From positions 40,436,464 through 40,500,463 of the forward strand of contig NC_043011.1 in NCBI RefSeq assembly GCF_006345805.1: DNA of 64,000 nucleotides, written 5' to 3'. A model generated the notes under the pieces. That model was not told the origin of the DNA, did not search any database, and saw nothing but the letters and a program-made list of their open reading frames with translations. Made by a program: the position numbers and the translations under genes. Every line of letters starts with the position of its first letter. The stretch's first letter is position 1. This document shows, in pieces, positions 7,673 to 62,125 of the stretch. This DNA comes from Octopus sinensis. Taxonomy: Eukaryota.

Positions 7673-7703
<31 letters not shown>

Positions 7704-12456: not shown

Positions 12457-13671
12457 TAATCTGTATTTTTGTTTTTTTATTTGCCCTGTCCGTGTGAGCT
12501 AACAATCGTACTGACTTTCATGGGAAACATGTATTTTTGTGGTTGAAACCTTTTGGATTAACTGGTGCTAGAGTGAGCCATATAGTGACCACTCTCTTAT
12601 ATTTATTTTGTAAAAATATTATAATATATTATAAAATATTATAAAATCCAGGTTTCTCGGAGCACTAGGCCACTTGGTGTAGAATAGATATACTATTAAT
12701 TAGTATCTAATTCTCTCACCCTTATTAATTAATTATAATTATGCTGCATTTATTTCTAAATGCTGTATTTGTTTTCCGTGAAAATTTGGCGCGCTGTTGG
12801 TTGGGGCATTTGAATTATAACGTCGGATGTAATCAATTGAACCACACGCGTATTTATCGTTATGGTAAAATCTGGCGTGTGATTGAGTGGATTTCATCCA
12901 GATAGTTTGGGCTGAGGAGCTACAAGTGGATTTTTTTGTAAGTAAAATTACATTTAATTCATAATAGCGAAACAATTGTCCCAAAATAATCTGTATTTTT
13001 GTTATTTTTTATTTGCCCTGTCCATGTGAGCTAACAATCGTACTGACTTTCATGGGAAACATGTATTTTTGTGGTTGAAACCTATTGGATTAACTGGTGC
13101 TAGAGTGAGCCATATAGTGACCACTCTCTTATATTTATTTTGTAAAAATATTATAATATATTATAAAATATTATAATAATCCAGGTTTCTCGGAGCACTA
13201 GGCCACTTGGTGTAGAATAGATATACTATTAAATTAGTATCTAATTCTCTCACCCTTATTAATTAATTATAATTATGCTGCATTTATTTCTAAATGCTTA
13301 TTTGTTTTCCGTGAAAATTTGGCGCGCTGTTGGTGGGGCCTTTGAATTATAACGTCGGATGTAATCAATTGAACCACACGCGTATTTATCGTTATGATAA
13401 AATCTGCGTGTGATTGAGTGGATTTCATCCAGATAGTTTTGGCTGAGGAGCTACAAGTGGATTTTTTTGTAAGTAAAATTACATTTAATTCATTAATAGC
13501 GAAACAATTGTCGCCAAAATAATCTGTATTTTTGTTATTTTTTATTTGCCCTGTCCGTGTGAGCTAACAATCGTACTGACTTTCATGGGAAACATGTATT
13601 TTGGTGGTTGAAACCTATTGGATTAACTGGTGCTAGAGTGAGCCATATAGTGACCACTCTCTTATATTTAT

Positions 13672-15250: not shown

Positions 15251-15639
15251 TCACTCACTCACTCACGTTCGTAGGTATAGTGAAGCAGAGGGTTGCACAA
15301 TTCACGTATTGAGTCGACAAAAACATATTTGGTTAATTAAATTTAGACCCGTGTTGGAAATAAAAGTTATTAGCTATCATTAGTAATAATTCTCGTCTAA
15401 AAAGAACTCTCCGAAATGCAAATTGAATATAATTTCTATAGGATTATGTAGTGGTGTGGGAGATTGATCTTGGGCAAGTGTAGGGATTATGAGTGACATG
15501 TTTCTAATTTATTCAGCCACTTCAGTTTTATTCTTACTAGAAAAATTTCTAGAAACAGTGAAAATATTCAAAAAAAAATTAATAAAAATCTATTATATAA
15601 ATTATCTTCAAAAGAAGATTAGCAAACACCTGTTGAACT

Positions 15640-16126
15640 ATTTACATTTGACGGATATTTGTCCTCATCTTGTTTGTCGGGAGACCGTACATGTGTGGTG
15701 GTTTATCGTAGTGTCAAGTCAGTTGACTGTATTTCATTGGTGTAAAGTGATCCTTAATCAAGATCTGTGACAACTTCCTCTCTGTTTTCAGAGATGGGTC
15801 TTTCTTTACTTTGCTGTAGCTACCATCACTTATAAGACTTGCCAAGTTTTCCGAGCAGCCATACTTGTTCATCACCAATGTAGCATTTCCTTTGTCTGAC
15901 AACTCGAAAAACTTGGCAAGTCTTATAAGTGATGGTAGCTACAGCAAAGTAAAGAAAGACCCATCTCTGAAAACAGAGAGGAAGTTGTCACAGATCTTCA
16001 TCAAGAACAAGGGTCACTTAACACCAATGAAATATAGACAACTGACTCGACACTACACTAAACTACCTCACATGTACGGTCTCCCAAACAAACAAGATAA
16101 GGAGAAATATCCGTCAAATGTAAATA
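15640..16126. mobile_element. inverted pair of Penelope-like RT N-terminal fragments
   Basis: Minus: DKGNATLVMNK...LISDGSYSKVKKDPSLKTERKL. Plus: LISDGSY...KLPHMYGLP. DKG and P.xYGLPK are PLE RT motifs. Arms 15640-15850 and 15910-16126. Confidence 0.8.
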
Positions 16127-16365: not shown

Positions 16366-16420
16366 TCAGGGTGAGTACTTGATAATTGTAAGCACCTGTA
16401 TATACCGTTTATAAAACAAA

Positions 16421-16582
16421 ATGATGCCAAGGATTCAGCGGTACATATGTTTCGGGCCTTTATTAGACGGATTTATAACAATGCATAATGTGTGTCTATG
16501 GCCTTAGACACACATTATGCATTGTTATAAATCCGTCTAATAAAGGCCCGAAACATATGTACCGCTGAATCCTTGGCATCAT
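16421..16582. repeat. perfect ~78-bp-arm hairpin containing the 3' half of a hammerhead
   Basis: ATGATGCCAAGG...TGTGTCTA / TAGACACA...CCTTGGCATCAT; each arm carries GGCCC-GAAAC-ATAT-GTA. Confidence 0.85.
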
Positions 16583-16605
16583 GTTTTTATTTTGATTAAT
16601 TTATT

Positions 16606-16868: not shown

Positions 16869-17091
16869 ATTGTATAAAAGATCGTGGGTAAGGCCAAAAC
16901 AATGCTAAGTAAATGCAAGGTAAATCACCAGAAAACAAATATGTGAATTAATATAGACTTACCTTATATTCAGTATTTCGGGGTTATTGAATACAAGATA
17001 AGTCTACATTAATTCACATATTTGTTTTCTTGTGATTTCCCTTGCATTTACTTCGCATTGTTTTGGCCTTACCCACGATCCTTTATACAAT
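16869..17091. repeat. inverted repeat, ~93-bp arms, ~37-bp spacer
   Basis: 16869-16961 is the reverse complement of 16999-17091 with a few mismatches. Confidence 0.85.
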
Positions 17092-19856: not shown

Positions 19857-19892
19857 TTCCGGTAGATTTCGACTTTTTAACTTTCGGGGTCA

Positions 19893-20309
19893 CTCTTTTA
19901 CTTGTTTCAGTCATTTGACTGTGGCCATGCTGGAGCACCACCTTTAGTCGAGCAAATTGGGGACTTATTCTTTGTAAGCCTAGTACTTATTCTATCGGTC
20001 TTTGGCCGAACCGCTAAGTTACGGGGACGTAAACACACCAGCATCGGTTGTCAAGCGATGTTGGGGCGACAAACACAGACACACACACACAGACACACAC
20101 ACACACACACGCGCGCACACACACACACTCACACACACACACATACATATATATATACATATATACGACGGGCTTCTTTCAGTTTCCGTCTACCAAATCC
20201 ATTCTCAAGGCTTTGTTCGACTCGCGGCTATAGTAGAAGACACTTGCCTGTACCCGGAACCATGTGGTCGGTAAGCAAGCTACTTACCACACACCTACTC
20301 CTACGCCTA
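19893..20309 (-). mobile_element. SINE family C, nested in a family-B copy
   Basis: tRNA-like head, internal (CA)n/(TA)n, AAAGAGT tail; family-B sequence on both sides. Confidence 0.8.
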
Positions 20310-20511
20310 CGGGTTGATAAATCATTCTTTTCTACTCCAGGCACAAGGCTCGAAATTTTTGGGGAGGTGTCAAGTCGATTAGATCTACCCCAGTACTCAA
20401 CTGGTACTGATAGACAAAGTATTATTTGAACACTGGTATCGATGTAGTCGACTTCCTTCATCTCCTTAAAATTGCTGACTTTGTACTAAAAATTAGAAAG
20501 AATTATTGACA

Positions 20512-20660
20512 AGGAGTGGTTGTGTGGTAAGAAGCTTTCTTACCAACTACATGATTCTAGGTTCAGTCCCACTGCGTGGCACCTTGGACGACTGTCTTCT
20601 GCTATAGCCTCGGGCCGACTGAAGCCTTGTGGGTGGTAGACAGAAACTGAAATAAGCTCG

Positions 20661-20694
<34 letters not shown>

Positions 20695-20900
20695 TTGTAT
20701 GTCTGTTTGTTCCTCCTCCACCGTCGCTTGACAACCGATGTTGGTGTGACTACGTCCCCGTAACTTAGCAGTTCAGCAATAGAGACCGATAGAATAAGTA
20801 CTAGGCTTACAAAGAATAAGTTCGATTTGTTCGACTAAAGGCGGAGCTCCAGCATGGCTGCAGTCAAATGACTGAAACAAATAAAAGAGTAAAAGAGTAA
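20512..20900 (+). mobile_element. SINE family C
   Basis: AGGAGTGGTTGTGTGGTAAG...GGTTCAGTCCC...CACCTTGGACG; tail (AAAAGAGT)2. Confidence 0.8.
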
Positions 20901-21038: not shown

Positions 21039-21081
21039 TCCAGATTGATGATGAGCAATGACTCTGAAACTAGTCTCTGGA
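21039..21081 (+). ncRNA. minimal type I hammerhead, C3U variant or decayed
   Basis: TCCAGA-TTGATGA-TGAG CAATGA CTCT-GAAAC-TA-GTC-TCTGGA. Confidence 0.65.
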
Positions 21082-24155: not shown

Positions 24156-25108
24156 GCAAACTTTTACTTTTCTTAATTTAGAATAATAACATCTGGAGAA
24201 CATTTCCAGAAAGTGTAAATTTATCGATTTTTTTTCAAGCATATATCCTTCGCCATCTGTAAGAAGAATAAGTAACAACAACGAGGAGGCGGTTTATTTA
24301 TAATTTCTTTCGAAAGACGTAGAGCGAAGGAAAGTAACATTCTTTTGTTCTCTCAGTTCTCTTCAGTTTTGAAGAGCGAATACAATAGCAGAAGATGCAA
24401 AGATTGAATGACACAATCGAAACGATTTTGTTTATGCTTTTGTTTTTCAGGAGGTTTGAGAATATTAAAGAAAGCTATAAAACAATAAAGATTAAACTGA
24501 ACGTAAAGAAGTGGGCTACGATGACAACGATGACGACGACGATGAGGAGGACGACAAAGACGCGGACGACAACAACGATGGCGAAGGCAACGACAACGAT
24601 GATGATGATGGTGACAAAACGAGGCTGTACAAATTCATTAGGAAACATCTACCGACGCATATCTAATAGTATACACCATGCTTCGATATATCAAATACAA
24701 ACAATCACACATATACACTTATAAAGAAGTACACACACAGGCACGATTTTTGCATGGTTATATATGTATAAAGAAAACTCCGAATGACCCGTCCTTGTTT
24801 TCTTTGTATCCTCTATCTGGATGTTTTGTTGTCCCTTTCTTGTATCACCTAACTGTCTGGATGTTTTGCGTTCTTGTTCCATTTTGTATTATATATATAT
24901 ATATATATATATTATGTGAAATAGAAAGATGAATAATCTTGTAGCAGATTAATCAAAAGTTTAACCGATACCTTGGTAGCAAAAATCACAGCAGAAGACA
25001 GCACAGTTGGAGGTACAACCATATGGTGTTGCAACCGTGCGTTGGTGCGGATAATTGAATTTTAATATTATTAGTGAAATGAAGAAATGGAGCTGAACGA
25101 AATCGTTT

Positions 25109-25201
25109 TATTTCATTCTACACGTGTTTCGAAAGGCACAATTTACCAAAATCCGACTGAATAATGAGACCATATTGTGTCTTTCTCTTCAGGAAGAAAT
25201 A
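25109..25201 (-). ncRNA. type I hammerhead ribozyme
   Basis: Reverse complement of 26314-26406. Confidence 0.9.
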
Positions 25202-26313
25202 GGAAATCCGTTGGAAAAAACAAAAACAGAACAGAGGCGGAGCAAAACAAATCGAACTAGGCTCCTAAGAGCCCATGGCCAAACTGTTTATCAGTGTATA
25301 TTGAGAACGGGTGGTGGGTGCGTTGAAGAATTTAACGGGTCAGGCAGCGGTCATTCCTGTGGGTGAGGGCACGAGGTGTGTAGATGTTCTTTGTGACCGA
25401 GAGTAAAGTTCTGACTATTTAAAGAATATTGGATGTATTATATGGGGCGAGTCAAAATCTACTTAGAGACATGTGTGTGTTTACTGTTCTATATATGTGT
25501 GCTGGCGCGAGTTGGTAAGAAGCGCTATTTTCTGGTCACTGCTGAGAACTCCGTCAAGGGGTAGAAAACATTTTTTGTGTACGTGTGTGCGTTTGATCGC
25601 GCGGCTGTCAGTTGTTAAACAGCTCTACACAATGGTCACTGCAGTAAAAACCGTCGGGCGGCAGAAAAATATTTTATGTTTTATGTGTGCGTGTGTTCGT
25701 CTAATCATGCCTTGTCAAAGAGACCCCCCGTCGTCAAAAACAAAGCCCCATTCATCTCACAGGAGTAGTGAGATGAGCATGATTAGACGAACATGATTGA
25801 CAAGGCATGATTAGACGAACACACGCACACATAAAACATAAAATATTTTTCTGCCGCCCGACGGTTTTTACTGCAGTGACCATTGTGTAGAGCTGTTTAA
25901 CAACTGACAGCCGCGCGATCAAACGCACACACGTACACAAAAAATGTTTTCTACCCCTTGACGGAGTTCTCAGCAGTGACCAGAAAATAGCGCTTCTTAC
26001 CAACTCGCGCCAGCACACATATATAGAACAGTAAACACACACATGTCTCTAAGTAGATTTTGACTCGCCCCATATAATACATCCAATATTCTTTAAATAG
26101 TCAGAACTTTACTCTCGGTCACAAAGAACATCTACACACCTCGTGCCCTCACCCACAGGAATGACCGCTGCCTGACCCGTTAAATTCTTCAACGCACCCA
26201 CCACCCGTTCTCAACATACACCGATAAACAGTTTGGCCATGGGCTCTTAGGAGCCTAGTTCGATTTGTTTTGCTCCGCCTCTGTTCTGTTTTTGTTTTTT
26301 CAAACGGATTTCC

Positions 26314-26406
26314 TATTTCTTCCTGAAGAGAAAGACACAATATGGTCTCATTATTCAGTCGGATTTTGGTAAATTGTGCCTTTCGAAACACGTGTAGAAT
26401 GAAATA
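26314..26406 (+). ncRNA. type I hammerhead ribozyme
   Basis: TATTTCTTC-CTGAAGA-GAAAGACACAAT...ATTGTGCCTTTC-GAAAC-ACGT-GTA^GAATGAAATA. Confidence 0.9.
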
Positions 26407-26454
26407 AAACGATTTCTGTTCAATCTTCGTTCAGCTCCATTTCTTCATTTCACT

Positions 26455-26499
<45 letters not shown>

Positions 26500-30348: not shown

Positions 30349-30705
30349 AAGCGACAAGGGAAATGTATGGAGTTTGGATGCCAGCGAAAATAGCTGGGAG
30401 GCAATTTAAAAATCGATCTTTAAAGCAGAAATGTCAATATAACTAAAATAGCTATTTCTTATTATGAATAATTGTTATAACAAAAATAATAGGCTGATAG
30501 GCAAGGAGAAAGGTTTACATGAATAAAATAAATAATGAAAAATAGAGGAAACAAAGAGAAAAGAAGAGAAAGAAAAAGAAGAAACTCTAACCAGCTTTCT
30601 ATAGTATTCTTATACAAGGCTTTAATGCATTCTCAACGGCTTCTTGCGTTGTAATGATTTCAAATGTAGACTTAGAGGCCGTGGATTTTTTGTCGTACAG
30701 TACTT

Positions 30706-31212
30706 CTCTATGGTTGTGAAACGTGGCCTATGCGGGTGGTCGATCAACGAAGGCTCGAAGTCTTCGACAATGACTGCCTCCGGTGCATTCTTCGCTGCCA
30801 TCGGGTGGATCGAGTTCCCACCGCCAATCTCCGACTTCGCCTGTCTCTGCGGCCCCTTCCATCTGTCCTTCTGCAACGGCGCTTGCGGTGGTTTGGCCAT
30901 GCATGTAGGCATCCGGTGGGTGAACTGAGCCGTGATGTCCTTCTCCCAACTCCACTTCCCAACTGGCGGAAACGCGCGGGCGGGCAGCTGAAGACCTGGG
31001 TTACGACGATCAAGGAGGACCTCTCTGTGCTCACGGGACCGCAGGTGGTCGGCCTGCGCCAGTGGAACCGTGACTGGCTCGCTATCTCTAGTGAACTGGC
31101 GCACGACCATCGTGCGTGGGCTGCCATGGTTCGAGATGCCTCGAGGATGGTAGAAGAAGCCGACTCAACCCGCCCAGGGTGAATGTCGCCACAAGTACAA
31201 GTACAAGTAAGT
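30706..31212 (+). mobile_element. RTE-clade LINE 3' end, 5'-truncated
   Basis: LYGCETWP...CLRCIL...RRLRWFGHACR...W C-terminus with open frame and stop at 31182, then (CAAGTA)3 tail. Confidence 0.9.
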
Positions 31213-31740: not shown

Positions 31741-32124
31741 AACCTCCAATTTACGGTTTAGTCGAACAAATAATCCCCACTACTTATGTTCTAAGTGTGG
31801 AGCTTGTACTCATTTTGTCAGTCGTTTTCATAGAAGCGCTAAGTTACGGGAACGCAAACAAACCAACAATGGTTATCAAGGGATAATGACTGCTGGACAA
31901 AGACAAACACACGCACACGCACACTCCCACACACACACATATCACGGATTTCCACACAGTTTCCTTGTCAAATTCACTGTCAAGGTAATTGGTTAACCCG
32001 AGGCTATAGTAGAAAACATTCGTCCAAAGTGCCTTGCGGTGAGACTGAACCAGAAACCATCTGGTTACAAAGCAAGCTTCTTAATCGCACAACTATGATT
32101 TATTTAATATTATATCAGTGCCAA

Positions 32125-33220
32125 GGCGGCGAGCTGGCACAAACGTTAGCACGCCGGGCGAAATGCTTAGCCGTATTTCGCCCGGTGCTGCGTTCTGAGT
32201 TCAAATTCCGCCGAGGTTGATTTTGTCTTTCATCCTTTTGAGGTCAATTAAATAAGTACCAGTTACGCACTGGGTCGATATAATCGACTTAATCCGTTTG
32301 TCCGTCCTTGTTTGTCCCCTCTGTGTTTAGACCCTGGTGGGTAGTAAAGAAATAGGTATTTCGCCTGTGTTTACGTTCTGAGTTCAAATTCCGCCTTTTG
32401 GGGTCGATAAATTAAGTACCAGTTGCATACTGGGGTCGATCTAATCGACTGACCCCCTCCCCAAAACTTTCGAGCCTTGTGCCTAGAGCAGAAAAGAATA
32501 TTATATCAGTGCCAAGGCGATGAGCTGGCAGAAACGTTAGCCAGCCGGGTGAAATTCTTAGCGGTATTTCGTCTGTCTTTATGTTCTGAGTTCAAATTCC
32601 GTCGAGGCCGACTTTGCCTTTCATCTTTTCGGGGTCGATAAATTATGTACCAGTTGCGTACTAGGGTCGATCTAATCGACTGGACCCCTCCTCCAAAATT
32701 TCAGGCCTTGTGCCGAGAGTAGAAAAGAATATTTTCTACAATGAATTTTCATCTATCACACCTGACGAACTAATCTATCGACATTCTAAGAATTTTGTAG
32801 TATTGATGACACTGGTGTAAACTTTAATACGGTAAAAAGGAGAATCGAAAAGAATATTTTATTTCATTTGTCTTTACGTTCTGAGTTCAAATTCTGCCGA
32901 GGTCGACTTTGCCTTTCACCCTTTCGGAGTCGATAAATTAAGTACGAGTTGCGTATTGGGGTCGATCTCATCGACTGGAGCCCCTCATCCAAAATTAAAA
33001 TATAGGGCCTTGTGCCGAGAGTAGAAAAGAATGTTTTATTTCGTTTGTCTTTACGTTCTGAGTTCATATTCCACCGAGGTCGACTTTACCTTTCATCACT
33101 TCAGGGTCGATAAATTAAGTACCAGTTGCGTACTGCGGTCGAATTAATCGATCCCCAGCCCCCTCACAAGAAAAAATTTCGGGCCTTGTACCTAGAGTAG
33201 AAAAGAAAAGAAAATATTTC
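32125..33220 (+). mobile_element. cluster of about 5 head-to-tail or nested family-B SINEs
   Basis: GTTCTGAGTTCAAATTC recurs near 32192, 32376, 32583, 32878 and 33055. Confidence 0.85.
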
Positions 33221-34320: not shown

Positions 34321-34365
<45 letters not shown>

Positions 34366-34577
34366 GTGAAGGGAAGAAATGGAGCCGAACGAAGATTCTT
34401 CCCTTCACTAAATATATAAAACTTCAAGTATCCGCGCTAAAGCACGGGGGCGAAACCCCATGGTCGTAACCTCAACCGTGTCTTTTCTGGTGTGGTTTTT
34501 GCTACACAGGTATCGGTTAAATTTTGAATAATCCGTAACAAGATAATTCATTTATCCATTTCATTATGTATATATAC

Positions 34578-34649
<72 letters not shown>

Positions 34650-34742
34650 ATAGTGCCAACAGAGAACTTATGAAGTATTTTGCTCAGATTGGTAATCCCT
34701 CATAAATAACTCCGTTGTATATATGTATATATGTATATAATA

Positions 34743-34785
<43 letters not shown>

Positions 34786-35093
34786 ATATATATTATGTAT
34801 GTATGTATATATATATATATATACATATACTATATATATATACATTTTATATATATGTATATATATGTCTATATATGTATATATATGTGTATATATATTA
34901 TATATATATATATTATATAAAAGGGCTTAGTAAAATAAATTACTTTGCCGCATACTGAACTCATTAGAAATAGCAGCTAAAAAACTTTTTTAAGGCTATT
35001 TCTAATACTTAAAGAAAATCTCTCTCATATATAGTGTTTGCATAATTTAACTCACAAAAGTTTGGGGGTAATGACATCGAAAAATCAAATGCT

Positions 35094-35163
35094 AAGGTTA
35101 TTCGAGAACGTACGTTTCAAGATTAGTCAAAACAACATTCTATCATCGGCTCGGAAATTCCTT
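35094..35163 (-). ncRNA. variant type I hammerhead (array 2 left arm; also near 35635, 36181, 36721)
   Basis: Reverse complement of the motif at 37429. Confidence 0.6.
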
Positions 35164-37428
35164 GGTTGGATTTGGAAACACTGAAAATAAGAACATACCC
35201 TCTCGAAGATCTGCTCCCAACTAACAGTGCCAACAAATTCAAAATAAGCAAGCGAAGAATCTCTGTTCTCCCCTTTCCACCAGCGTGGGTTAAAATCATC
35301 AAACTCTATGCTTATTTCGGTAAAGTCCGAAGCATTAATCAGAGGGAGATTAATTATAATTTCAACAATTGAGGGCAAAATTAATTAATTATTAATCAAT
35401 TTCACCAAGTGTTCAGTATGCAAAGGGACCATTCAAGGCGAATTCAAATTATTACATTATATAAAAGGGCTTAGTAAAATAAATTACTTTGCCGCATACT
35501 GAACTCATTAGAAATAGCAGCTAAAAAACTTTTTTAAGGCTATTTAATACTTAAAGAAAATCTCTCTCATATATAGTGTTTGCATAATTTAACTCACAAA
35601 AGTTTGGGGGTAATGACATCGAAAAATCAAATGCTAAGGTTATTCGAGAACGTACGTTTCAAGATTAGTCAAAACAACATTTCTATCATCGGCTCGGAAA
35701 TTCCTTGGTTTGGATTTGGAAACACTGAAAATAAGAACATACCCTCTCGAAGATCTGCTCCAACTAACAGTGCCAACAAATTCAAAATAAGCAAGCGAAG
35801 AATCTCTGTTCTCCCCTTTCCACCAGCGTGGGTTAAAATCATCAAACTCTATGCTTATTTCGGTAAAGTCCGAAGCATTAATCAGAGGGAGATTAATTAT
35901 AATTTCAACAATTGAGGGCAAAATTAATTAATTATTAATCAATTTCACCAAGTGTTCAGTATGCAAAGGGACCATTCAAGGCGAATTCAAATTATTACAT
36001 TATATAAAAGGGCTTAGTAAAATAAATTACTTTGCCGCATACTGAACTCATTAGAAATAGCAGCTAAAAAACTTTTTTAAGGCTATTTCTAATACTTAAA
36101 GAAAATCTCTCTCATATATAGTGTTTGCATAATTAAATCACAAAAGTTTGGGGGTAATGACATCGAAAAATCAAATGCTAAGGTTATTCGAGAACGTACG
36201 TTTCAAGATTAGTCAAAACAACATTTCTATCATCGGCTCGGAAATTCCTTGGTTTGGATTTGGAAACACTGAAAATAAGAACATACCCTCTCGAAGATCT
36301 GCTCCCAACTAACAGTGCCACAAATTCAAAATAAGCAAGCGAAGAATCTCTGTTCTCCCCTTTCCACCAGCGTGGGTTAAAATCATCAAACTCTATGCTT
36401 ATTTCGGTAAAGTCCGAAGCATTAATCAGAGGGAGATTAATTATAATTTCAACAATTGAGGGCAAAATAATTAATTATTAATCAATTTCACAAGTGTTCA
36501 GTATGCAAAGGGACCATTCAAGGCGAATTCAAATTATTACATTATATAAAAGGGCTTAGTAAAATAAATTACTTTGCCGCATACTGAACTCATTAGAAAT
36601 AGCAGCTAAAAAACTTTTTTAAGGCTATTTCTAATACTTAAAGAAAATCTCTCTCATATATAGTGTTTGCATAATTTAACTCACAAAAGTTTGGGGGTAA
36701 TGACATCGAAAATCAATGCTAAGGTTATTCGAGAACGTACGTTTCAAGATTAGTCAAAACAACATTTCTATCATCGGCTCGGAAATTCCTTGGTTTGGAT
36801 TTGGAAACACTGAAAATAAGAACATACCCTCTCGAAGATCTGCTCCCAACTAACAGTGCCAACAAATTCAAAATAAGCAAGCGAAGAATCTCTGTTCTCC
36901 CCTTTCCACCAGCGTGGGTTAAAATCATCAAACTCTATGCTTATTTCGGTAAAGTCCGAAGCATTAATCAGAGGGAGATTAATTATAATTTCAACAATTG
37001 AGGGCGCAAACACTATATATGAGAGAGATTTTCTTTAAGTATTAGAAATAGCCTTAAAAAAGTTTTTTAGCTGCTATTTCTAATGAGTTCAGTATGCGGC
37101 AAAGTAATTTATTTTACTAAGCCCTTTTATATAATGTAATAATTTGAATTCGCCTTGAATGGTCCCTTTGCATACTGAACACTTGGTGAAATTGATTAAT
37201 AATTAATTAATTTTGCCCTCAATTGTTGAAATTATAATTAATCTCCCTCTGATTAATGCTTCGGACTTTACCGAAATAAGCATAGAGTTTGATGATTTTA
37301 ACCCACGCTGGTGGAAAGGGGAGAACAGAGATTCTTCGCTTGCTTATTTTGAATTTGTTGGCACTGTTAGTTGGGAGCAGATCTTCGAGAGGGTATGTTC
37401 TTATTTTCAGTGTTTCCAAATCCAAACC

Positions 37429-37499
37429 AAGGAATTTCCGAGCCGATGATAGAAATGTTGTTTTGACTAATCTTGAAACGTACGTTCTCGAATAACCTT
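37429..37499 (+). ncRNA. variant type I hammerhead (array 2 right arm; also near 37969, 38510, 39054)
   Basis: AAGG..TTCCGAG-CCGATGA-TAGA...TCTT-GAAAC-GTAC-GTT^CTCGAA..CCTT; U4C core and GUU triplet. Confidence 0.6.
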
Positions 37500-40400
37500 A
37501 GCATTTGATTTTTCGATGTCATTACCCCCAAACTTTTGTGAGTTAAATTATGCAAACACTATATATGAGAGAGATTTTCTTTAAGTATTAGAAATAGCCT
37601 TAAAAAAGTTTTTTAGCTGCTATTTCTAATGAGTTCAGTATGCGGCAAAGTAATTTATTTTACTAAGCCCTTTTATATAATGTAATAATTTGAATTCGCC
37701 TTGAATGGTCCCTTTTGGTGAAATTGATTAATAATTAATTAATTTTGCCCTCAATTGTTGAAATTATAATTAATCTCCCTCTGATTAATGCTTCGGACTT
37801 TACCGAAATAAGCATAGAGAGTTTGATGATTTTAACCCACGCTGGTGGAAAGGGGAGAACAGAGATTCTTCGCTTGCTTATTTTGAATTTGTTGGCACTG
37901 TTAGTTGGAGCAGATCTTCGAGAGGGTATGTTCTTATTTTCAGTGTTTTCCAAAAACCAAGGAATTTCCGAGCCGATGATAGAAATGTTGTTTTGACTAA
38001 TCTTGAAACGTACGTTCTCGAATAACCTTAGCATTTGATTTTTCGATGTCATTACCCCCAAACTTTTGTGAGTTAAATTATGCAAACACTATATATGAGA
38101 GAGATTTTCTTTAAGTATTAGAAATAGCCTTAAAAAAGTTTTTTAGCTGCTATTTCTAATGAGTTCAGTATGCGGCAAAGTAATTTATTTTACTAAGCCC
38201 TTTTATATAATGTAATAATTTGAATTCGCCTTGAATGGTCCCTTTGCATACTGAACACTTGGTGAAATTGATTAATAATTAATTAATTTTGCCCTCAATT
38301 GTTGAAATTATAATTAATCTCCCTCTGATTAATGCTTCGGACTTTACCGAAATAAGCATAGAGTTTGATGATTTTAACCCACGCTGCTGGTGGAAAGGGG
38401 AGAACAGAGATTCTTCGCTTGCTTATTTTGAATTTGTTGGCACTGTTAGTTGGGAGAGCAGATCTTCGAGAGGGTATGTTCTTATTTTCAGTGTTTCCAA
38501 ATCCAAACCAAGGAATTTCCGAGCCGATGATAGAAATGTTGTTTTGACTAATCTTGAAACGTACGTTCTCGAATAACCTTAGCATTTGATTTTTCGATGT
38601 CATTACCCCCAAACTTTTGTGAGTTAAATTATGCAAACACTATATATGAGAGAGATTTTCTTTAAGTATTAGAAATAGCCTTAAAAAAGTTTTTTAGCTG
38701 CTATTTCTAATGAGTTCAGTATGCGGCAAAGTAATTTATTTTACTAAGCCCTTTTATATAATGTAATAATTTGAATTCGCCTTGAATGGTCCCTTTGCAT
38801 ACTGAACACTTGGTGAAATTGATTAATAATTAATTAATTTTGCCCTCAATTGTTGAAATTATAATTAATCTCCCTCTGATTAATGCTTCGGACTTTACCG
38901 AAATAAGCATAGAGTTTGATGATTTTAACCCACGCTGGTGGAAAGGGGAGAACAGAGATTCTTCGCTTGCTTATTTTGAATTTGTTGGCACTGTTAGTTG
39001 GGAGCAGATCTTCGAGAGGGTATGTTTATTTTCAGTGTTTCCAAATCCAAACCAAGGAATTTCCGAGCCGATGAAGAAATGTTGTTTTGACTAATCTTGA
39101 AACGTACGTTCTCGAATAACCTTAGCATTTGATTTTTCGATGTCATTACCCCCAAACTTTTGTGAGTTAAATTATGCAAACACTATATATGAGAGAGATT
39201 TTCTTTAAGTATTAGAAATAGCCTTAAAAAAGTTTTTTAGCTGCTATTTCTAATGAGTTCAGTATGCGGCAAAGTAATTTATTTTACTAAGCCCTTTTAT
39301 ATAATGTAATAATTTGAATTCGCCTTGAATGGTCCCTTTGCATACTGAACACTTGGTGAAATTGATTAATAATTAATTAATTTTGCCCTCAATTGTTGAA
39401 ATTATATATATATATTATATATATAATATATATATATATACATATATATATATGAAAGAAAGTTATTTTATTCCATGTGCGTAAAAATATATGAGCAAAG
39501 AAGTTGAAAACGCACTGGCAGTCTTTTATCTGTTTTATTTTTAATGGCTTAACCGGTTTCACACATTTTTCTGAGTTTCAAAATTTGAGATAGAAAGACG
39601 TGCGGCTATGGCGCAGCTATTTTGCATTTGACTGAAGTTCGAAAATTCTCTTTTGTTTTTATAGAGAGCTCATGACTCAAATTAATATTTGTTTAGAATA
39701 CACTTTGGCTGATACGCATGTTAGCCTAAACTTAGAGTGCAAAAAATATTGTTATATTATATTAACGCACGGACGTAGTTGGGAACATGCAAACATTTCT
39801 AAGGCTAATCACGTGATAATTCTCTACTGATTAAAAAAAAATATATCCATTTAATGGATATTAATTTAAGTCATTTTGTCTCTACAAATACGCGAATTTT
39901 CGAACTCCAGTCAGAAGCAAGACATTCGCGGCATAGCCCCCCCCCCCACGTCTTTCCATCTCACTTAATTTAAGAAAATCAGAAAAATCTATGAAACGGG
40001 TTGAGCATTCAAAAACCAACCATTTCAAAAATTCCCACTGAATTTCTCCCTTCAGGAAGGAGGAGTTAATACAAACTGGCCAACCCTGGAATTTACAGAT
40101 ACTAGGAAAACTAAGAAATAACACCATCTTAGTTGTTTGATGAAAATATTATGGTATGTGTTATGGAATGCTTCTGTCATTCCATTAGTAATAGACACTG
40201 GATTGATACACAGCCATTTTTGTAAAGACACTGAAAAGTTCCCTGTAACGATAGACAGCCATGTTCAAGAAAATAGCAGTGCTATTAGAATCAGTAAATT
40301 ATTGTTAGTGCATTCTCATACAGCATTTGATCATGAAAATTCTTATTGATCTTCAACATCTTCGTTAATCATGAATACGTTTATGCATGTTGTCAAAGAC

Positions 40401-43630: not shown

Positions 43631-43632
43631 AA

Positions 43633-44010
43633 AGGCGGTGAGCTGGCAGAAACGTTAGCACGCTGGGCGAAATGCGTAGCCGTATTTCGTCTGCCGCTAC
43701 GTTCTGAGTTCAAATTCCGCCGAGGTCGACTTTGCCTTTCATCCTTTCGGGGTCGATAAATTAAGTACTAGTTACGCACTGGAGTCGATATAATCGACTT
43801 AATCCGTTTGTCTGTCCTCGTTTGTCCTCTCTGTGTTTAGCCCCTTGTGGGTAGTAAAGAAATACGTATTTCGTCTGCCGCTACTTTCAAAGTCAACTTT
43901 CCTTTCATCCTTTCAGGGTCGACAAAATAAGTACCAGTTGTACACTGGGGTCGATGTAATCGACTTAACCCCTCCCCCAAAATTGCTGCAATTGTGGCAA
44001 AATTTGAAAC
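43633..44010 (+). mobile_element. nested family-B SINE pair, followed by (TTA)n and a further copy at ~44198-44380
   Basis: Junction AAAGAAATACGTATTTCGTC. Confidence 0.8.
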
Positions 44011-44984: not shown

Positions 44985-45084
44985 NNNNNNNNNNNNNNNN
45001 NNNNNNNNNNNNNNNNNNNNNNNNNNNNNNNNNNNNNNNNNNNNNNNNNNNNNNNNNNNNNNNNNNNNNNNNNNNNNNNNNNNN
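44985..45084. other. assembly gap (100 N)
   Basis: Run of N. Confidence 1.
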
Positions 45085-46409: not shown

Positions 46410-46803
46410 GGCGCAGGCATGGCTGTGTGGTAAAAGCTTTTTTTCCCACCCACATAGTTCCGGGTTCAGACCCACTGCGTAGCACCTTGTGCAAGTGTCT
46501 TCTACTATAGCCTCGGGCAGATCCAAACCTTGTGAGTGGATATGGTTGACTGAAACTGAAAGAAGTCGTATATACACACACACATGCACACATATATATT
46601 TGTATGTGTTTGTGTGTGCTTTCCCACCATTGCTTGATAATTGATGTCGGTGTGTTTATGTCCCCGTCACTTTGCGGTCCGGCAAAAGAACCCGATAGAA
46701 TAAGTATAAGGCTTACAAAGAATAAGTTCTGGAGGTCAATGTGCTCGACTAAAGGCGGTACTCCAGCATGGTCGCAGTCAAGTGACCGAAACAAGTAAAA
46801 GAA
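46410..46803 (+). mobile_element. SINE family C (opposite partial copy at 46960-47160)
   Basis: GGCGCAGGCATGGCTGTGTGGTAA head, CACCTTGTGCAAGTGTC centre. Confidence 0.8.
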
Positions 46804-47191
46804 AAATGTATAAAAGAATACAAAGCAAACATTAATATTGTATATACATGTGTGTGTGTGTGTATGCATGAATGTATATGTATATATATACATACATATA
46901 TATATATATTATATATATATGTGTGTATATATAATAGATAAATATAGATATATTTTGATTCCTACTTGTTTAATTCATTTCAATGCGGCCATGCCGGAGC
47001 ACTGGCTTAAAGTGTTATTAGTCGAGGAAGTTCACACCATGACTTATTCTTTGTAAGCTGGGTACTTATTCTATCGAAGTCTTTTGACGAACCGCTAATG
47101 TTACAGGGATTTAAACACACCAACATCCGTTGTCAAACGATTGTGAATGCACAAACACACAAAAACATATGTATATATGTATATAAAACAC

Positions 47192-47730
47192 AATAAATAA
47201 TATTAAGGGTAATAAGAATTATAGAAATTATTATTACCAGTGGCCTAGCACAAAAAAATTAGTCAATAGATTATATATTATTCGCATAAAAATATCGTAT
47301 ACATTAAAACACATTAAGAGGCTTCCAAATAGGAAAGCTTTGTGCTAGAAGGAGCAGTAGAAAACTCAAACCACTAATTAGGGATAAATTCTCGAAAAGA
47401 ATAAAAATCGAAAACGTTTACCATCTAATTTAGTTCCTAGACCATGGTTTCCGACTAATTCCAGTAAAAAAATATTTACTGAGGCCAGCTTCGTCAGTAG
47501 GGAGCCTTTAGATTTCAAATATACACACAACTAGATTCACATGTAAACTAGCTGCCTGTATATCTTAACTTTTCAAAACCACTGCGCAGATGCAGTTTAT
47601 TTCCGGCGACAGAGGGGATGTACACGATATTTTTATGTGAATAATATATAGTCTATTGACTAATTTTTGTTGTGCTAGGCCACTGGTAATAATAATTTCT
47701 ATAATTCTTATTACCCTAATATTATTTATT
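47192..47730. mobile_element. fold-back element with ~90-bp inverted ends and an internal hammerhead; related to the array 1 unit
   Basis: 47192-47283 mirrors 47637-47730; TAAGGGT...ACCAGTGGCCTAG shared with array 1. Confidence 0.8.
47435..47502 (-). ncRNA. type I hammerhead, stem II base degenerate
   Basis: CCTA-CTGACGA-[..TCAGTAAA/TTTACTGG..]-GAAAC-CATG-GTC^TAGG. Confidence 0.75.
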
Positions 47731-47777
47731 ATGTTTAAATATTTTTTGATAAATTTGTTCGAAATTTTACCAGCATG

Positions 47778-48636: not shown

Positions 48637-49344
48637 TTGGGTTGGCAACTAAGTTCCCGCCGTTTTTTAAAATTTTGGAATCTAAGAATCTAAGAATACA
48701 TTATTGATTGACTAATTAATCAATAATGTATTCACGTTTGTTGTTTACAACTTCTTTCCAACGTTCAACTAGATTTTCAATACTTCGTTGGTAGAAATCA
48801 CCCGATTTCACCGCGAAAAATTGATCCAACCAAGCTCTCAATTCTGCACCAGTATTGAACGAAACTCCGCGCATAGCATTGCTTGTGTCCATGAGTTGAG
48901 CAGTGACGAGCAAGCAAACCAGCGGAGATTGTGGCTCGATGATTTTTGTTGTCGTGACTTAAAGCATGCGGAACCCATGCTCCATATTTCTGAACCTTTC
49001 CCATCGAGGTGCGTCTTTGAGGTCAAAATTTCCATTTTTGAACTTAGCATACCAATCACGATCGGTTCTTTCAGCTATGGCACCCTCTCCATACACAACA
49101 GAAATGTTGCGAGCAGCTTTTGCAGCCTTAGAACCTTGATTAAAAGCAAAAAGGAGGTGTCGAAAATGCTCATTTTTCTTAACTGGATATTCCATTTTAA
49201 TGATCTGAAAATAAAAGAAAATTAACTAAAATTAACTAGAAGAAAAAACAAAATAGATTCCAAAATAATTCAAAAATAGAATTCTCGAAAAAAAAAAAGA
49301 TTCCAAAATTTAAAAACACGGCGGGCACCTTATTGCAAACCCAA
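48637..49344 (-). mobile_element. internally deleted mariner (mellifera-like)
   Basis: TIRs TTGGGTT(G/T)GCAA..AGG/AAGT.CCCGCCG in TA context; NEHFRHLL...KFKNGNFDL.D.PR, WVPHAL, IENLVERW. Confidence 0.9.
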
Positions 49345-49428
49345 ATATATAATGTATTATATTTATGTATGTATGTGTATATATATATATATATATATTT
49401 ACACACACACACATACATACATACATAC

Positions 49429-49487
<59 letters not shown>

Positions 49488-49606
49488 CGTTTGACTTTAT
49501 ATATATATATATATATATACACATAGATACATACATATATACACACACATATATATATATATATATTATATATATACATATACATATCTATATATACATA
49601 TATATA

Positions 49607-49644
<38 letters not shown>

Positions 49645-49669
49645 ATTATATATGCAAAACTATTGTGTA

Positions 49670-49735
<66 letters not shown>

Positions 49736-49741
49736 TATATA

Positions 49742-49894
49742 TTGGGTTTGCAACTAGGTGCCCGCCGTGTTTTTAAATTTTGGAATCTTTTTGTTTTTTT
49801 TTCGAGAATTCTATTTTTGAATTATTTTGGAATCTATTTTGTTTTTTCTTCTAGTTAATTTTAGTTAATTTTCTTTCATTTTCAGATTATTAAA
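49742..49894 (+). mobile_element. second copy of the same mariner 5' end, inverted
   Basis: Near-exact reverse complement of 49197-49344. Confidence 0.85.
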
Positions 49895-51628: not shown

Positions 51629-52200
51629 TGAAGGCACATGGCTCAGTGGTTACAGCTTCAGGCTCGCAATCATGAGGTAATGAGTTCCTGGACTGGGCTG
51701 TGTGTTGTGTTCTTGAGCAAGGCACTTATTTCTCGTGGCTTCATTTCACTCAGCTCTAGAAATGAGTTGCAACTGGGGTCAAGCTGTATCGGCCTTCGCT
51801 TTTCCCTTAGATGACATTGGTGGTGTGGATATGGAAGGCTGGTATTCATGGGTGAAATTAGGGCGGCGAGCTGGCAGAAACGTTAGCACGCCGGGCGAAA
51901 TGCTTAGCGGTATTTCGTCTGCGTTACGTTGTGAGTTCAAATTCCGCCGAGGTCGACTTTGCCTTTCATCCTTTCGGGGTCGATAAATTAAGTACCAGTT
52001 ACGCACTGGGGTCGATATAATCGACTTAATACCTATGTCTGTCCTTGTTTGTCCCCTCTGTGTTTAGCCCCTTGTGGGTAATAAAGAAATAGGTATTCAT
52101 GGGTGACGGCTGGTCTTATATAAACAACGTTGCTCGGACTCGTGCTTCGGAAGGGAACTTTCTAGGTATAATCCCATGATCATTCCTGACCGAAGGGTTT
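51629..52200 (+). mobile_element. SINE family A carrying a full family-B SINE (51856-52091) with a 15-bp TSD
   Basis: GGTATTCATGGGTGA at 51841-51855 and 52092-52106. Confidence 0.88.
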
Positions 52201-57082: not shown

Positions 57083-58305
57083 GATATCAAGAAAGTTCTT
57101 GCGGAATTTTTAATATTGGTTTCAAATTAATTTTCGTTAAATTACTTTGACTTTATATATCATTTTAAAACCGGTTTTTCGCTCTATCTAATCGTGTTAC
57201 TTTTTGAATAATTAGGCCATTTTGTCCTGGACGTTGAATACAACATGGACAAAAAGCAAATTCGCACAATTTTCTTATTCCAGTTCAACCTAGGCCGAAA
57301 AGCTGCTGAAACAGCTCGCGTGCGCTTGGCTCAGGAACCACTAATGAACGTACAGCACAATGGTGGTTCAAGAAATTTCATAGCGGTGACGAGAGTCTTG
57401 AAGATGATAAGCCTAGTGGTTGGCCATCGGATGTTTACAACGATCAACTAAGAGCCTTAGTGGAAGCCAATCCACGCCCAACTGTTCGAGAGCTTGCTTC
57501 TGAATTAGACGTAACGTATACAATTTCCAACCATTTGAAAGAAATTGGAAAAGCAAAAATACTTGAGAAATGGGTGCCGCACGAATTGAGCGACAGCCCC
57601 CCCCCCAAAAAAAAATGCCGTTTTGAAGTGCCGTCTTCCCTTCTTTTACGCGACAAGAACGACCTGTTTCTCGACCGGATTGTGACTTGCGATGAAAAGT
57701 GGATTCTTTACGACAACCGGCGACGCTCAGCTCAGTGGTTGGACGCCGATAAAGCTTCACGGCACTTTCCGAAGCCGAAGTTGCACCAAAAGAAAGTCGT
57801 GGTGAGTGTTTAATGGTCTGTGGCTGGTCTCATCCATTGACAGCTTTTTGGATCCAGGCGATACCATTACGGCGGAGAAGTACTGTCAGCAAATGGATGA
57901 AATGCATAAGAAACTCCGACAACAACAGTCAGCAATGGTCAATAGAAAAGGACCAATTCTTCTCCACGACAACGCTCGGCCGCACGTCGCACAACTGACC
58001 TTGCAGAATTTCAACGAATTTGGCCACGAAACTCTGCCTCATCTGCCATACTCACCAGACCTCTCGCCTACCGACTACCACTTTTTCAAGCATCTCTACA
58101 TCTTCCTGTGTGAGAAATGCTTCAAAAACCAAGACGATGCCAAACACGCCTTCAACGACTTCATCGGCAGCAGAATGCAGGATTTTACACGTTGGCAAAA
58201 GTGTGTTGATTCAGTGTTTATTTCGATTAATAACATTTTGTTGAGCCGAGATATGTGCATCTAAATTTAAAGGTTAAAAATGCAAGAACTTTCTTGACAA
58301 CCTAA
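57079..58305 (+). mobile_element. near full-length decayed mariner (cecropia/Hsmar1-like) in (TA)n
   Basis: TIRs TTGGGATATCAAGAAAGTTCTTGC / GCAAGAACTTTCTTGACAACCTAA. Confidence 0.93.
57245..58230 (+). pseudogene. mariner transposase, frameshifted
   Basis: [49 protein letters not shown]; spread over several frames and third catalytic D lost. Confidence 0.92.
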
Positions 58306-58324
58306 TATATATATATATATATAT

Positions 58325-58855
58325 ATAAATATAATCATTACAGATATAGGGTAAAGAATTATTAATTTAATATATTTTACCAAGTAGTTTCGGTATGGAA
58401 AAGAACCATATTCGGTAAAAACTTATACAAAAAGTGTTTTTATATATAATTATAACAATAATTAAGGGTTTAGCAACAAGTTACTTAACCACATACCGAA
58501 AATTTAGAAATAGCAGCCAAAAGACCGCTATTTCTTTTTCCTACAAAATCCGTCTCGACAGATAACAATATAACTTCTAAATTTTCGGTATGTGATGTTG
58601 CTAAACCCTTAATTATTATTATAATTATATACTCTTTTTTTTATTACTCTTTTTACTTGTTTCAGTCATTTGACTGTGGCCATGCTGGAGCACCGCCTTT
58701 AATCGAGCAACTCGACCCCGGGACTTATTCTTTTGTAAGCCCAGTACTTATTCTACCGGCCTCTTTTGCCGAACCGCTAAGTAACGGGGACATAACACAC
58801 CAGCATCGGTTGTCAAGCAATGCTAGGGGGACAAACAAAGACACGAACACACACA

Positions 58856-58912
<57 letters not shown>

Positions 58913-59520
58913 GACGGGCTTCTTTCAGTCTCCGTCTACCAAATCCACTCACAAGGCTTTGGTTGGCCCGAGGCTATAGTAGAAGACACTTGCCCAAGGT
59001 GCCATACCGAAACTACTTGGTAAAATTTATTAATTTATTAAATTAATAATTCTTTACCCTATATCTGTAATGATTATTTTACTCCCTGGTAACAAAATTG
59101 TGGATCTCTTTCTACGGTACTATCTTGTGACGCACATGGTAAACTTGAGGGAAATACGAATTCAGTCGTCTATATAAGTTTGGATATGCTGACTACCTTG
59201 TGTTATGTTCTGATGGCGCGTGATCAGAAATGCAAAGGGTAAGTTTTCCTAGCATTTTCAAATTTATAATTTTCGAAATATTATGTTGACAATGGAAATG
59301 AATTTTTATAATTCTAATCCAGAAACGCGTCCATAATTAATCGAAGACTGTTTGATTTAATTATTTTTCTTCTTTTTACCTATGTGTGTTACAAATATTG
59401 CTATCTGTGGAGACATATTTTGTAGGAAAAAGAAATAGCAGTCTTTTGGCTGCTATTTCTAAATTTTCGGTATGTGGTGAAGCAACAAGTTGTTAAAACC
59501 CTTAAGTATTGTTATATATA
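58325..59520. mobile_element. older fold-back element of the array 2 family, interrupted by a family-C SINE (58633-59003)
   Basis: 58330-58397 mirrors 59004-59076 and 58450-58570 mirrors 59395-59520. AAGGG.TTAG...TTAGAAATAGCAGC...GCTATTTCT shared with array 2. Confidence 0.8.
59280..59337 (+). ncRNA. decayed type I hammerhead
   Basis: ATTATG-TTGACAA-TGGA...TCCA-GAAAC-GC-GTC^CATAAT. Confidence 0.65.
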
Positions 59521-60606: not shown

Positions 60607-61345
60607 CTATCCACTACAGTCCTTGTAGCGCTTCATTTGTGTCCCCCTGTTGCAGTGGCCAGTTGTGAGCTCACCGTACATGATGATATGGGGTAGGCGG
60701 TGGTCTTTCATTCTGCCAACGAGCCCTACCCAACGCAGTCCTGTCTCAAGTAAAATGGCTTCCAGACTTGTGACCTTTGTTCGCTCAAGGACCTCAGTGT
60801 TGACGATGTAGCCACTCCAGTAAATGTTGAGGATGGTACAGTGGCGGCGTTGGTGAAAATCTTCAAGGAGCCTGAGATGACAGCAGTAAGGGATCCTGTA
60901 CTCAGAGCCATATAGCAGCATCGTGAGAACGATAGTCCTGTAGACGCTAACTTGTGTGCTAATCTTAAGATGCTTGTTGTTACACATGCGCTTGTACAGT
61001 CTGCCAAATGCTTTGTTAGTCTTTGCAAGTCTGTTGTCAGTTTCTTTGTCGATACTCGCATCTGAAGAAATGGTACATCCAAGATAAGTTAACTGCTGTA
61101 CCGACTTCAGTTCTGTTTCCGCAAAGTTGATGTGGGGCGAGCTGTACTCTTCCTGAGGAGCCCGTTGGTGTAGGACTTCAGTCTTTTTCAACCTTACTTC
61201 CAGCACGAAGAGCTGGACGACCTCTGCAAAGCAGGATGTGATGCGCTGCAGGGCTCTTTCTGCGTGTGCGACAAGTGTCGCATCATCTGAAAAGAGGAGG
61301 TGGTGGATCGGTTGTTCTTGAGTTTTGGAAACGACTGCCATCTAG
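60607..61345 (-). mobile_element. RTE-clade LINE, RT C-terminal part
   Basis: LLFSDD, KKTEV, TYLGCTIS, LLYGSE, LRWVGLVGRMKDHRLP, RYKD. Confidence 0.9.
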
Positions 61346-61349
61346 ACGG

Positions 61350-62125
61350 TATCTAATGTAGACGCTTTACGAAGAAAAAGAACTAGGATTGTTTTGACGA
61401 AAACGATTGACTGATCCAGGAATTATTAAAGAAGACGTCTGCCCACCAAGTACACCTGGCACAACCGCCCTGCCCAGAGAAGAAAGTGGCGTTTCGCCAA
61501 ACGCGAAGCTTTCTGCAGCGCAAACTCCCTGAAGTTCAGAATAAGTGGTAAACCAATTGCACATGGAGAACCCAGTTGTGTTCTGACTCTGGCGACTATA
61601 GGGGATTCTACAAAGCTTTCAAGGCAGTTTGCGGCCGAACACATCAAGTCTTGAGTCCCCTACGCAGCTCAGATGGCCAGGCGCTTCTCACAGACACAGC
61701 ATCCATTCTCAACCGTTGGTCTGAAAACTTTCAGGCCCTCTTCACTGCAAACCGAGTTGTTCAGCAAAACGCAATTCTCCACATCCAGCAGCATCCATTC
61801 AGCGTGGAACTAGATGAGCTTCCAGCCCTGGAAGAGACCAAATTTTCCATAGAATGGCTGAAGAGTAGAAAGACAGCAGGAGTCGATGGCATACCACCAG
61901 AGATATGGAGACATGGAGATCCTGTCATACATGCTAAACTCCACGATCTCCTTGTCGCATGCTGGAAACAGGGCAAGCTGCCACAAGATCTCCACAATTC
62001 TGTCATCATTAGACTGTACAAAAACAAAGAGGGAAAGTCAGACTGCTCAAACTACCGGGGGATCACCCTGCCTTCCAGTGCAGGAAAAGTTCTTGCAAGA
62101 TTACTCCGCAACAGACTTGCTCAGT
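61350..62125 (+). mobile_element. RTE-clade LINE, linker and RT N-terminal part, inverted relative to neighbour
   Basis: FDEND, LNRWSENF, KTAGVDGIPPEIW, LYKNKEGKSDCSNYRGITL. Confidence 0.9.

Follow-up and report, generated by a model that had tools for sequence, protein, structure and literature searches.

Penelope-like elements (PLEs) are described in the literature as inserting with an inverted, 5'-truncated copy, a tail on one side only and a bias towards (TA)n, and their reverse transcriptase (RT) as starting at two internal positions that define the tail, cleaving AT-rich DNA and extending both strands in vitro. The endonuclease-bearing Penelope/Poseidon and Neptune groups (PMC3846280, PMC8557442, PMC11167929) show tandem and inverted head-to-head copies, a one-sided tail, AT-rich or (TA)n targets and hammerhead ribozymes (HHRs) with a palindromic helix III. 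Among their relatives (PMC8557442), Chlamys elements such as MRC1 are non-autonomous PLE derivatives of green algae, with multicopy head-to-tail insertions in microsatellites, and the Naiads combine (TA)n targeting with complex tandem and inverted insertions. The metazoan non-LTR retrozymes (PMC7229834; 10.64898/2026.07.22.740005) are non-coding tandem units of low GC and high copy number, each with a single type I HHR. Retrozymes are related to pLTRs, and the case for their mobilisation by PLEs rests in published work mainly on co-occurrence and pLTR similarity; the origin of the tandem and inverted structures of PLEs, and of their microsatellite preference, is stated to be unresolved (PMC8557442).

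The array studied here (array 2), which lies in a 64,000-nt stretch of Octopus sinensis DNA (the window), shares all the listed features of the non-LTR retrozymes, and its 546-bp unit, longer than the typical 150-450 bp, falls inside the 51-972 bp range of a recent survey (Li et al. 2026, 10.64898/2026.07.22.740005). Unlike in the described non-LTR retrozymes, both of its arms are multimeric and inverted; the word 'inverted' occurs nowhere in Cervera and de la Pena 2020 (PMC7229834) and once in 10.64898/2026.07.22.740005. Array 2 likewise resembles Penelope/Poseidon and Neptune in architecture, target and ribozyme, but it lacks an open reading frame for an RT or a GIY-YIG endonuclease, and its tail is 108 nt long as against 30-40 bp in published PLEs, a difference that counts against the explanation we prefer. 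It differs from Chlamys, with its (CA)n or (C)n targets and mostly absent canonical HHRs, and from the Naiads, which have no canonical HHRs and are reported in cephalopods only as remnants. Copies in tandem, a partner that is inverted and 5'-truncated, a tail at one side only, an AT-rich target and an HHR together make up the signature published for PLEs as well as non-LTR retrozymes, and array 2 belongs to this already described pattern of tandem and inverted insertions of PLEs and non-autonomous HHR repeats, which the initial annotation left unnamed. We consider it probable that array 2 is one young insertion of a non-autonomous PLE (a non-LTR retrozyme, that is, a free pLTR-like unit), made through two-ended priming by a PLE enzyme acting in trans.

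Architecture of the array and its ends

The proposed unit of about 543 bp in some 3.85 plus 4.4 inverted copies holds up with slight adjustment: the consensus is 546 bp (530-551 bp in the copies as assembled), and the switch of orientation is confirmed at 37005/37006 (Table 1). Over about 4.5 kb the copies depart from the consensus by one substitution, 33 deleted and 8 inserted bases. All of them carry alleles that are in the minority by depth in contigs of public sequencing runs (at 36781, 36831, 37053 and 37157), which points to a single template for the array. The unit has a GC content of about 0.33 and no evident LTR/PBS/PPT layout. None of the four frames tested, including two from the unit, matched Pfam; no frame for a PLE RT with a GIY-YIG endonuclease occurs in the unit or the whole array, and in the consensus the longest frame without a stop codon, 92 aa, was put down to chance.

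Table 1. Features of array 2 and of related insertions in the window (positions in the window; a dot marks features given no strand)
Feature	Position	Strand	Remarks
Left (TA)n target tract	34718-34919	.	overlaps the element end by ~6 AT bases
Left arm	34915-37005	-	covers 3.85 units (2102 bases of the consensus); presumed RNA strand leftward (outward)
Type I HHR copy 1	35103-35153	-	core variant U4C; helix III palindromic
Type I HHR copy 2	35645-35696	-	
Type I HHR copy 3	36189-36240	-	
Type I HHR copy 4	36730-36781	-	family variant at 36776 gives canonical U4
Head-to-head junction	37004-37010	.	unit 458/121; GCAAA in both donors plus 2 extra bases
Right arm	37006-39404	+	2413 consensus bases = 4.42 units; inferred RNA strand rightward (outward)
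Two-hairpin RNA structure, one copy	37083-37235	+	stem A followed by hairpin B; z = -5.5 for the fold
Type I HHR copy 5	37439-37490	+	
Type I HHR copy 6	37969-38020	+	
Type I HHR copy 7	38520-38571	+	
Type I HHR copy 8	39064-39114	+	
One-sided 108-nt tail between two outer-end sites	39297-39404	+	includes stem A's 3' arm plus hairpin B
Right (TA)n target tract	39403-39453	.	
Array 1, unrelated 535-bp unit	7700-13668	.	HHR canonical; polarity as in array 2; only the left arm has a tail
Palindrome of PLE RT fragment, head-to-head	15639-16126	.	RT fragment outward-reading
Fourth family, head-to-head palindrome	24912-26462	.	canonical HHR core; (TA)n flanks; tail on left arm only
Fourth-family mini insertion	34362-34573	.	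left arm ~34 nt without tail; right arm ~16 nt plus tail; arms not nested
Third family	47186-47736	.	HHR-bearing arm of 432 nt, inverted arm of 119 nt; shares the two-hairpin end
Short head-to-head insertion, relative of array 2 unit	58332-58631	.	tail on left arm only
Monomer of that relative	59003-59520	+	59% identical to array 2 unit, collinear; HHR U3-A8; compensatory helices

As at PLE-type insertions, the partner is inverted, 5'-truncated and head-to-head, the tail stands at one end only and the target is an AT-rich microsatellite. The (TA)n flanks that had been claimed are both present; outside the TA run the flanks bear no mirror likeness to each other, and within it a target-site duplication is not discernible. 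The left arm starts, without a tail, at the inner of two outer-end sites (unit position ~541), and the right arm at unit position 439. These two sites recur, 108 nt apart, AU-rich and flanked by hairpins, and presumably correspond to two start sites of the RT. In contigs of public runs both sides of the base pair 37097-37170 vary, and loose contig ends enter (TA)n at 37125 and 37141, near the left-end site of array 2. A tail confined to one arm is found in five insertions: arrays 1 and 2 and those at 24912, 34362 and 58332. The GCAAA microhomology noted earlier at the inner junction is indeed present in both donors at the break, but it is not a clean 5-bp overlap, since two extra bases (GC) precede it; either a mistake of the assembly or a short insertion could account for these.

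Hammerhead ribozymes and the wider family

As the initial annotation had it, there are eight hammerhead-like motifs: each of the eight copies that span the HHR carries one, and every one reads outward. A motif of this kind arose in 5 out of 2000 shuffled versions of the unit (dinucleotide shuffling), by criteria fixed after the motif had been seen. Rfam scans focused on arrays 1 and 2 gave no hammerhead match, and the 150 matches listed for the whole window (62 further ones exist) are microsatellite-driven and of miRNA type. In the collinear relative at 59003 the helices are kept by compensatory changes, with a U3-A8 core, and canonical U4 accounts for 33, 49 and 25% of summed depth of the family in three runs. 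Because of these compensatory helices and the many family copies with canonical U4, we regard the predicted hammerhead as real at the level of the family, as judged from sequence. The version in array 2 carries C4, its helix II begins with a U-U pair at the base and its cleavage site is GUU, so that it may cleave poorly, which also counts against the explanation we prefer; published work associates U4C with considerably less HHR activity in vitro.

The description of array 2 as largely unrelated to array 1 holds, since the alignment score of the two units (233) is no better than that of shuffles (217 +/- 10, maximum 246). The same outward polarity is nevertheless seen in at least four sequence families of the window, and HHRs also read outward in array 1 and at 47186, 25065 and 16415. 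Contigs of three DNA-type runs hold 15 further inversion junctions of this polarity at depths of 15-104, four of them present in two runs each, so the head-to-head architecture is general, and the suggestion of two families sharing one mechanism, as a general system, is supported by at least four families plus these junctions. Among the joints listed (16 of 24, each side being only 21-30 bases at 90% likeness), 15 pass from a sense to an antisense arm and none is tail-to-tail. The breakpoints are scattered, with 1-5 shared bases at 6 of the 15 junctions and 2-15 added bases at 9. The distribution of spacer sizes in the contigs proved unusable, the searched stretch favouring cross-arm joints and only 16 of the 24 joints being listed.

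The array 2 family is present in 20 of 24 listed runs from 11 studies, and its summed depth reaches 1e5-1e6 as against the 15-104 of the joints, depth not being copy number; it is a very high-copy family dispersed over many loci. Among the listed runs holding the unit, none is recorded as RNA. One run guessed to be RNA has contigs along the unit, which as contigs cannot reveal circularity. Among the contig pieces listed, from a search with array sequence alone, none shows an empty site or bridges 37005/37006, and both results count against the explanation we prefer. So does the search for an autonomous PLE partner, which came up empty: an exact 23-mer had no match in metagenome contigs, none of eight related RT loci (35-43% identity) has a unit match, the tail motif or an HHR, and a PDB search with P0003 returned only weak group II intron-like RT matches.

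Origin of the palindrome

The kind of system is thus known, and what is gained is mechanistic detail: both arms are multimeric, the two-hairpin structure around the pair of outer-end sites is conserved in otherwise unrelated families, and the arm lengths are coupled, with a Spearman correlation of 0.93 over nine hand-picked insertions and 0.86 over seven with the arrays excluded. That set includes 16869-17091, although no HHR or RT was found there, and leaves out 49196-49894 (a TA run mid-element), 39538-40014 (old and lacking any PLE feature), pairs of SINEs and the single monomer at 59003-59520. In the mechanism that we consider probable, a PLE protein supplied in trans would bind the two-hairpin end and cut both strands within (TA)n; each of the two 3' ends would then prime cDNA, with synthesis beginning at the two internal start sites and leaving the one-sided tail, while the multimeric or circular template would give each arm several identical units. 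Finally the inner ends of the two cDNAs would be end-joined, via a few bases that pair or are added, producing the head-to-head palindrome. A more far-reaching and rather less likely version has reverse transcription proceed in a symmetric and coupled manner from the two ends of a single break, plausibly with a dimeric protein at work, the template being retrozyme RNA in circular or multimeric form and the two-hairpin element, conserved in shape across families unrelated in sequence, setting the two starts.

A possible, if rather doubtful, alternative retains the same PLE-type element and derives the inversion from fold-back self-priming, as proposed in the literature for the rotifer Penelope: one strand folds, is copied back, and the ends are resolved at either site. 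The coupling of arm lengths counts against simple independent priming, because fold-back predicts it and independent priming does not; moreover, the arms of each array differ by less than one unit, and at one junction in the contigs the sequence forms an almost perfect hairpin whose loop is 10 nt long. The remaining 14 contig junctions, however, are offset by 116-273 nt, though the searched stretch favours such offsets, and at 34362-34573 an inner extension on one arm and a tail on the other would fit fold-back only with separate trimming of the ends. Two variants of array 1 do occur in mirror-matched units, but these are 2 of 5 shared pairs and not significant, and such variants are uninformative here, array 2 having a single substitution and many differences in array 1 resembling assembly error.

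Readings that dispense with two-ended or folded reverse transcription fare worse. End-joining repair, too, leaves short microhomologies and templated inserts, and these would fit an ordinary tandem array inverted later by DNA repair or replication template switching; this is very improbable given that polarity is the same at 15 of the 16 listed contig joints and in unrelated families, that the outer ends on both sides fall at constant AU-rich positions within (TA)n, and that insertions shorter than a unit have the same layout. An artefact of assembly or library (a fold-back read, an amplification chimera or a mis-join of two loci) is decidedly improbable: the copies differ almost entirely by indels, as is typical of noisy long-read consensus, the library types are unrecorded and no contig piece among those listed (there are 12,550 further ones) bridges 37005/37006, but the flanks are unmirrored, equivalent contig junctions have substantive depth and recur between runs, and older palindromes have arms diverged by substitutions, as at 15639 (15 in 224 columns). 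Helitron- or Replitron-like elements have tandem arrays and terminal hairpins, and such a rolling-circle DNA element could produce tandem and inverted copies; the presence in every unit of a conserved HHR constrained at the RNA level, the PLE-type tails and the PLE RT fragment with the same layout make this origin extremely unlikely.

If coupled reverse transcription from both ends is the correct account, palindromic multimer arrays would preserve in the genome, at very many loci, a direct record of the rolling-circle integration of retrozymes by PLE enzymes. Non-coding HHR arrays here bear the complete insertion signature of PLEs, and their family has many junctions, which opens two-ended priming and fold-back to a computational test; the two-hairpin structure is a candidate cis element for an existing in vitro assay.

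Structure and recurrence of the array

The window is eukaryotic, AT-rich and replete with microsatellites. Self-comparison recovers the tandem and inverted array of the initial annotation: 3.85 units in the left arm and 4.42 in the right, against about 3.85 and 4.4 claimed, with a consensus unit of 546 bp, close to the 543 bp proposed. As had been stated, the array runs into (TA)n at both ends, each with a few-base overlap between (TA)n and AT-rich unit sequence. The left arm begins at unit position 541 and the right at position 439, and the two join at positions 458 and 121. GCAAA, read as junction microhomology, is shared by both donors; at the junction itself, however, it follows two additional bases. 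The little likeness asserted with array 1, another tandem/inverted array, holds: its 535-bp unit aligns no better than shuffles. The array copies show 1 substitution and 41 bases of insertion or deletion, as is typical when the consensus of near-identical copies is built from noisy long reads. Compared with contigs of public runs, all array copies carry the same single minority haplotype; hence, they derive from one template lineage, either a circle or a homogeneous multimer.

The unit was found in 20 of 24 listed runs, spanning 11 studies and 8 organism labels, and under seven labels more than half of the unit's words were matched; it is thus young and common to close relatives, or the labels overlap. 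We compared contigs of four runs, one perhaps the window's own sample, with one unit including the junction. The summed depth of the unit is 1e5-1e6 versus 15-104 at joints, whose sides are 21-30 bases long, in runs of unrecorded library type. Sixteen of the 24 contig joints are visible, four of them in two runs: 15 are head-to-head, leading from the sense into the antisense arm at breakpoints different from the array's, one is a deletion, and none is tail-to-tail. The head-to-head joints have 1-5 shared bases in six cases and 2-15 added bases in nine, and at 37125 and 37141 loose contig ends pass into (TA)n. None of the contig pieces listed from these four runs bridges the array's own junction. 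Other palindromes in the window, including those at 16415 and 15639, have the same polarity. Together with the same-polarity joints, they bear out the earlier proposal of a general system rather than a one-off event: the array is real and its arrangement general.

Hammerhead and two-hairpin end structure

Eight hammerhead (HHR)-like motifs had been claimed, and a custom scan finds a type I motif in eight copies, every one on the outward-reading strand; helix I is 4 bp long, the core reads CCGAUGA, helix III is self-complementary and the site is GUU. A comparable motif occurs in 5 of 2000 shuffles under criteria set post hoc, and an Rfam scan of the array reported no hammerhead. The motif is real at the family level because of two independent lines, namely the monomeric relative at 59003 and U4 variants in contigs. 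The relative is collinear with the array unit (identity at 315 of 536 columns; alignment score 301 versus 205 +/- 10 for shuffles) and bears a hammerhead at the corresponding place, where helix I has 6 bp, the core is U3-A8 and the site is GUC; its helix II consists of different paired stems enclosing the same 3x3 internal loop. U3-A8 covariation is known from hammerheads of Penelope-like elements (PLEs) (PMC4209133). In contigs of three DNA-type runs, 36776 reads as the canonical U4 in 33, 49 and 25% of the summed depth, and one pair of helix I is changed from C-G to U-G. As U4C is reported to considerably reduce in vitro activity (PMC3088659), the array's own copy may be weak. The cores are canonical in array 1 and in the 47186 and 25065 elements.

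The motif said to be common to both arrays is indeed present, and marks a predicted pair of hairpins in RNA of the inferred strand: the first is a long stem enclosing an AU-rich region, and a short conserved linker then leads into the second. The same fold is predicted from differing stem sequences in array 1, the present array and the 47186 element (z = -3.3, -5.5 and -3.2), and in the 58332 relative, where a stem pair changes from A-U to G-C; both partners of the pair 37097-37170 vary within the family, from C-G towards U-A, with their phase not visible in contigs. One outer-end site lies in the AU-rich stretch inside this structure and the other in an AU-rich stretch just beyond it. The intervening 108 nt, the tail, are on one arm only in the array, and are likewise one-sided in array 1 and at 24912, 34362 and 58332; in the 47186 element the outer site is the start of both arms.

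Origin of the inverted arrangement

Irrespective of the route of inversion, the array element is very probably of PLE type. According to published descriptions, PLEs insert as partial tandems that are frequently accompanied by an inverted, 5'-truncated copy and, at one end, by a tail of 30-40 bp, and Naiads and Neptune elements are biased towards (TA)n and microsatellites, respectively (PMC8557442); the commonest inverted form is head-to-head (PMC3846280). An anole PLE has been shown in vitro to cut AT-rich DNA and extend both strands; two internal RNA start sites delimit the tail, and HHR cleavage is dispensable (PMC11167929). pLTRs and tandem HHR repeats are related (10.64898/2026.07.22.740005), and other animals express such repeats as circles (PMC7229834). 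The array is a variant of an already known system.

We consider it reasonably probable that the inversion arose at a break in (TA)n, where both ends would prime synthesis and the two cDNAs would then be end-joined. This route is favored over fold-back because the breakpoints are scattered and the arms of the 34362 insertion are non-nested. Fold-back, in which we place limited credence, would fit the coupling between arm lengths (rho 0.93 for nine hand-picked insertions, partly confounded by family) and one hairpin-like junction, although dimer co-extension could, conjecturally, couple arm lengths likewise. That the array is instead an artefact of read fold-back is argued against by the substitutions between the arms of older palindromes and by array flanks devoid of mirror symmetry.

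In the literature covered, mainly open papers and largely at the level of their listings, we found no description of palindromic multimer arrays of retrozymes (non-coding HHR repeats) or of the two-hairpin end structure; existing catalogues may already include such families. Recently active Penelope families are listed for Octopus vulgaris, with hammerheads and palindromes unmentioned in the accessible main text (PMC13282606).

Neighboring palindromes and repeats

The coding fragment at 15639 shows 65-70% identity to two unnamed proteins, one with an RVT_1 match and a DKG motif; in three of eight related loci a GIY-YIG-like motif lies 3' of the reverse transcriptase (RT), the canonical PLE order.

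Features of the window and their positions
Feature	Positions	Observation
Array, left arm (-)	34915-37005	switch at 37005/37006
Array, right arm (+)	37006-39404
Array 1	7700-13668
Third family	47186-47736
Fourth family	24912-26462	palindrome with HHR at 25065
Fourth family, mini insertion	34362-34573
Relative, head-to-head insertion	58332-58631
Relative, monomer	59003-59520
RT-fragment palindrome	15639-16126
Palindrome	16411-16590	88-bp near-perfect arms close to TA runs, holding the 3' half of a Penelope-type hammerhead (16415) reading outward
Older palindrome	16869-17091	107-bp arms, 8 substitutions, 9-nt spacer; neither HHR nor RT found
Palindrome	49196-49894	unique arms of ~150 bp flanking a central 400-bp (TA)n tract; layout opposite to arrays
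Spacer of 25065 palindrome	25719-25796	terminates in short templated copies of arm end, resembling polymerase-theta-type inserts (by eye)
Lone weak HHR-like match	21039-21081	U3 core, 6-bp helix I, without helix II
Mariner-like transposase	57310-58264	frame-broken (from translation)
LINE (RTE-like) RT-like fragments	60607-62151, 30676-31182	by eye; Pfam search of the 30676 frame without match
SINE-like repeats	859-1089, 19892-20890, 32106-33207, 43632-44010, 46420-47185, 51862-52097, 58640-59004
Scaffold gap	44985-45084	100 N

The SINE-like repeats, which we take to be octopus-like in appearance, comprise at least two abundant families frequently next to TA or CA runs, and one copy sits between the two relatives of the array unit.
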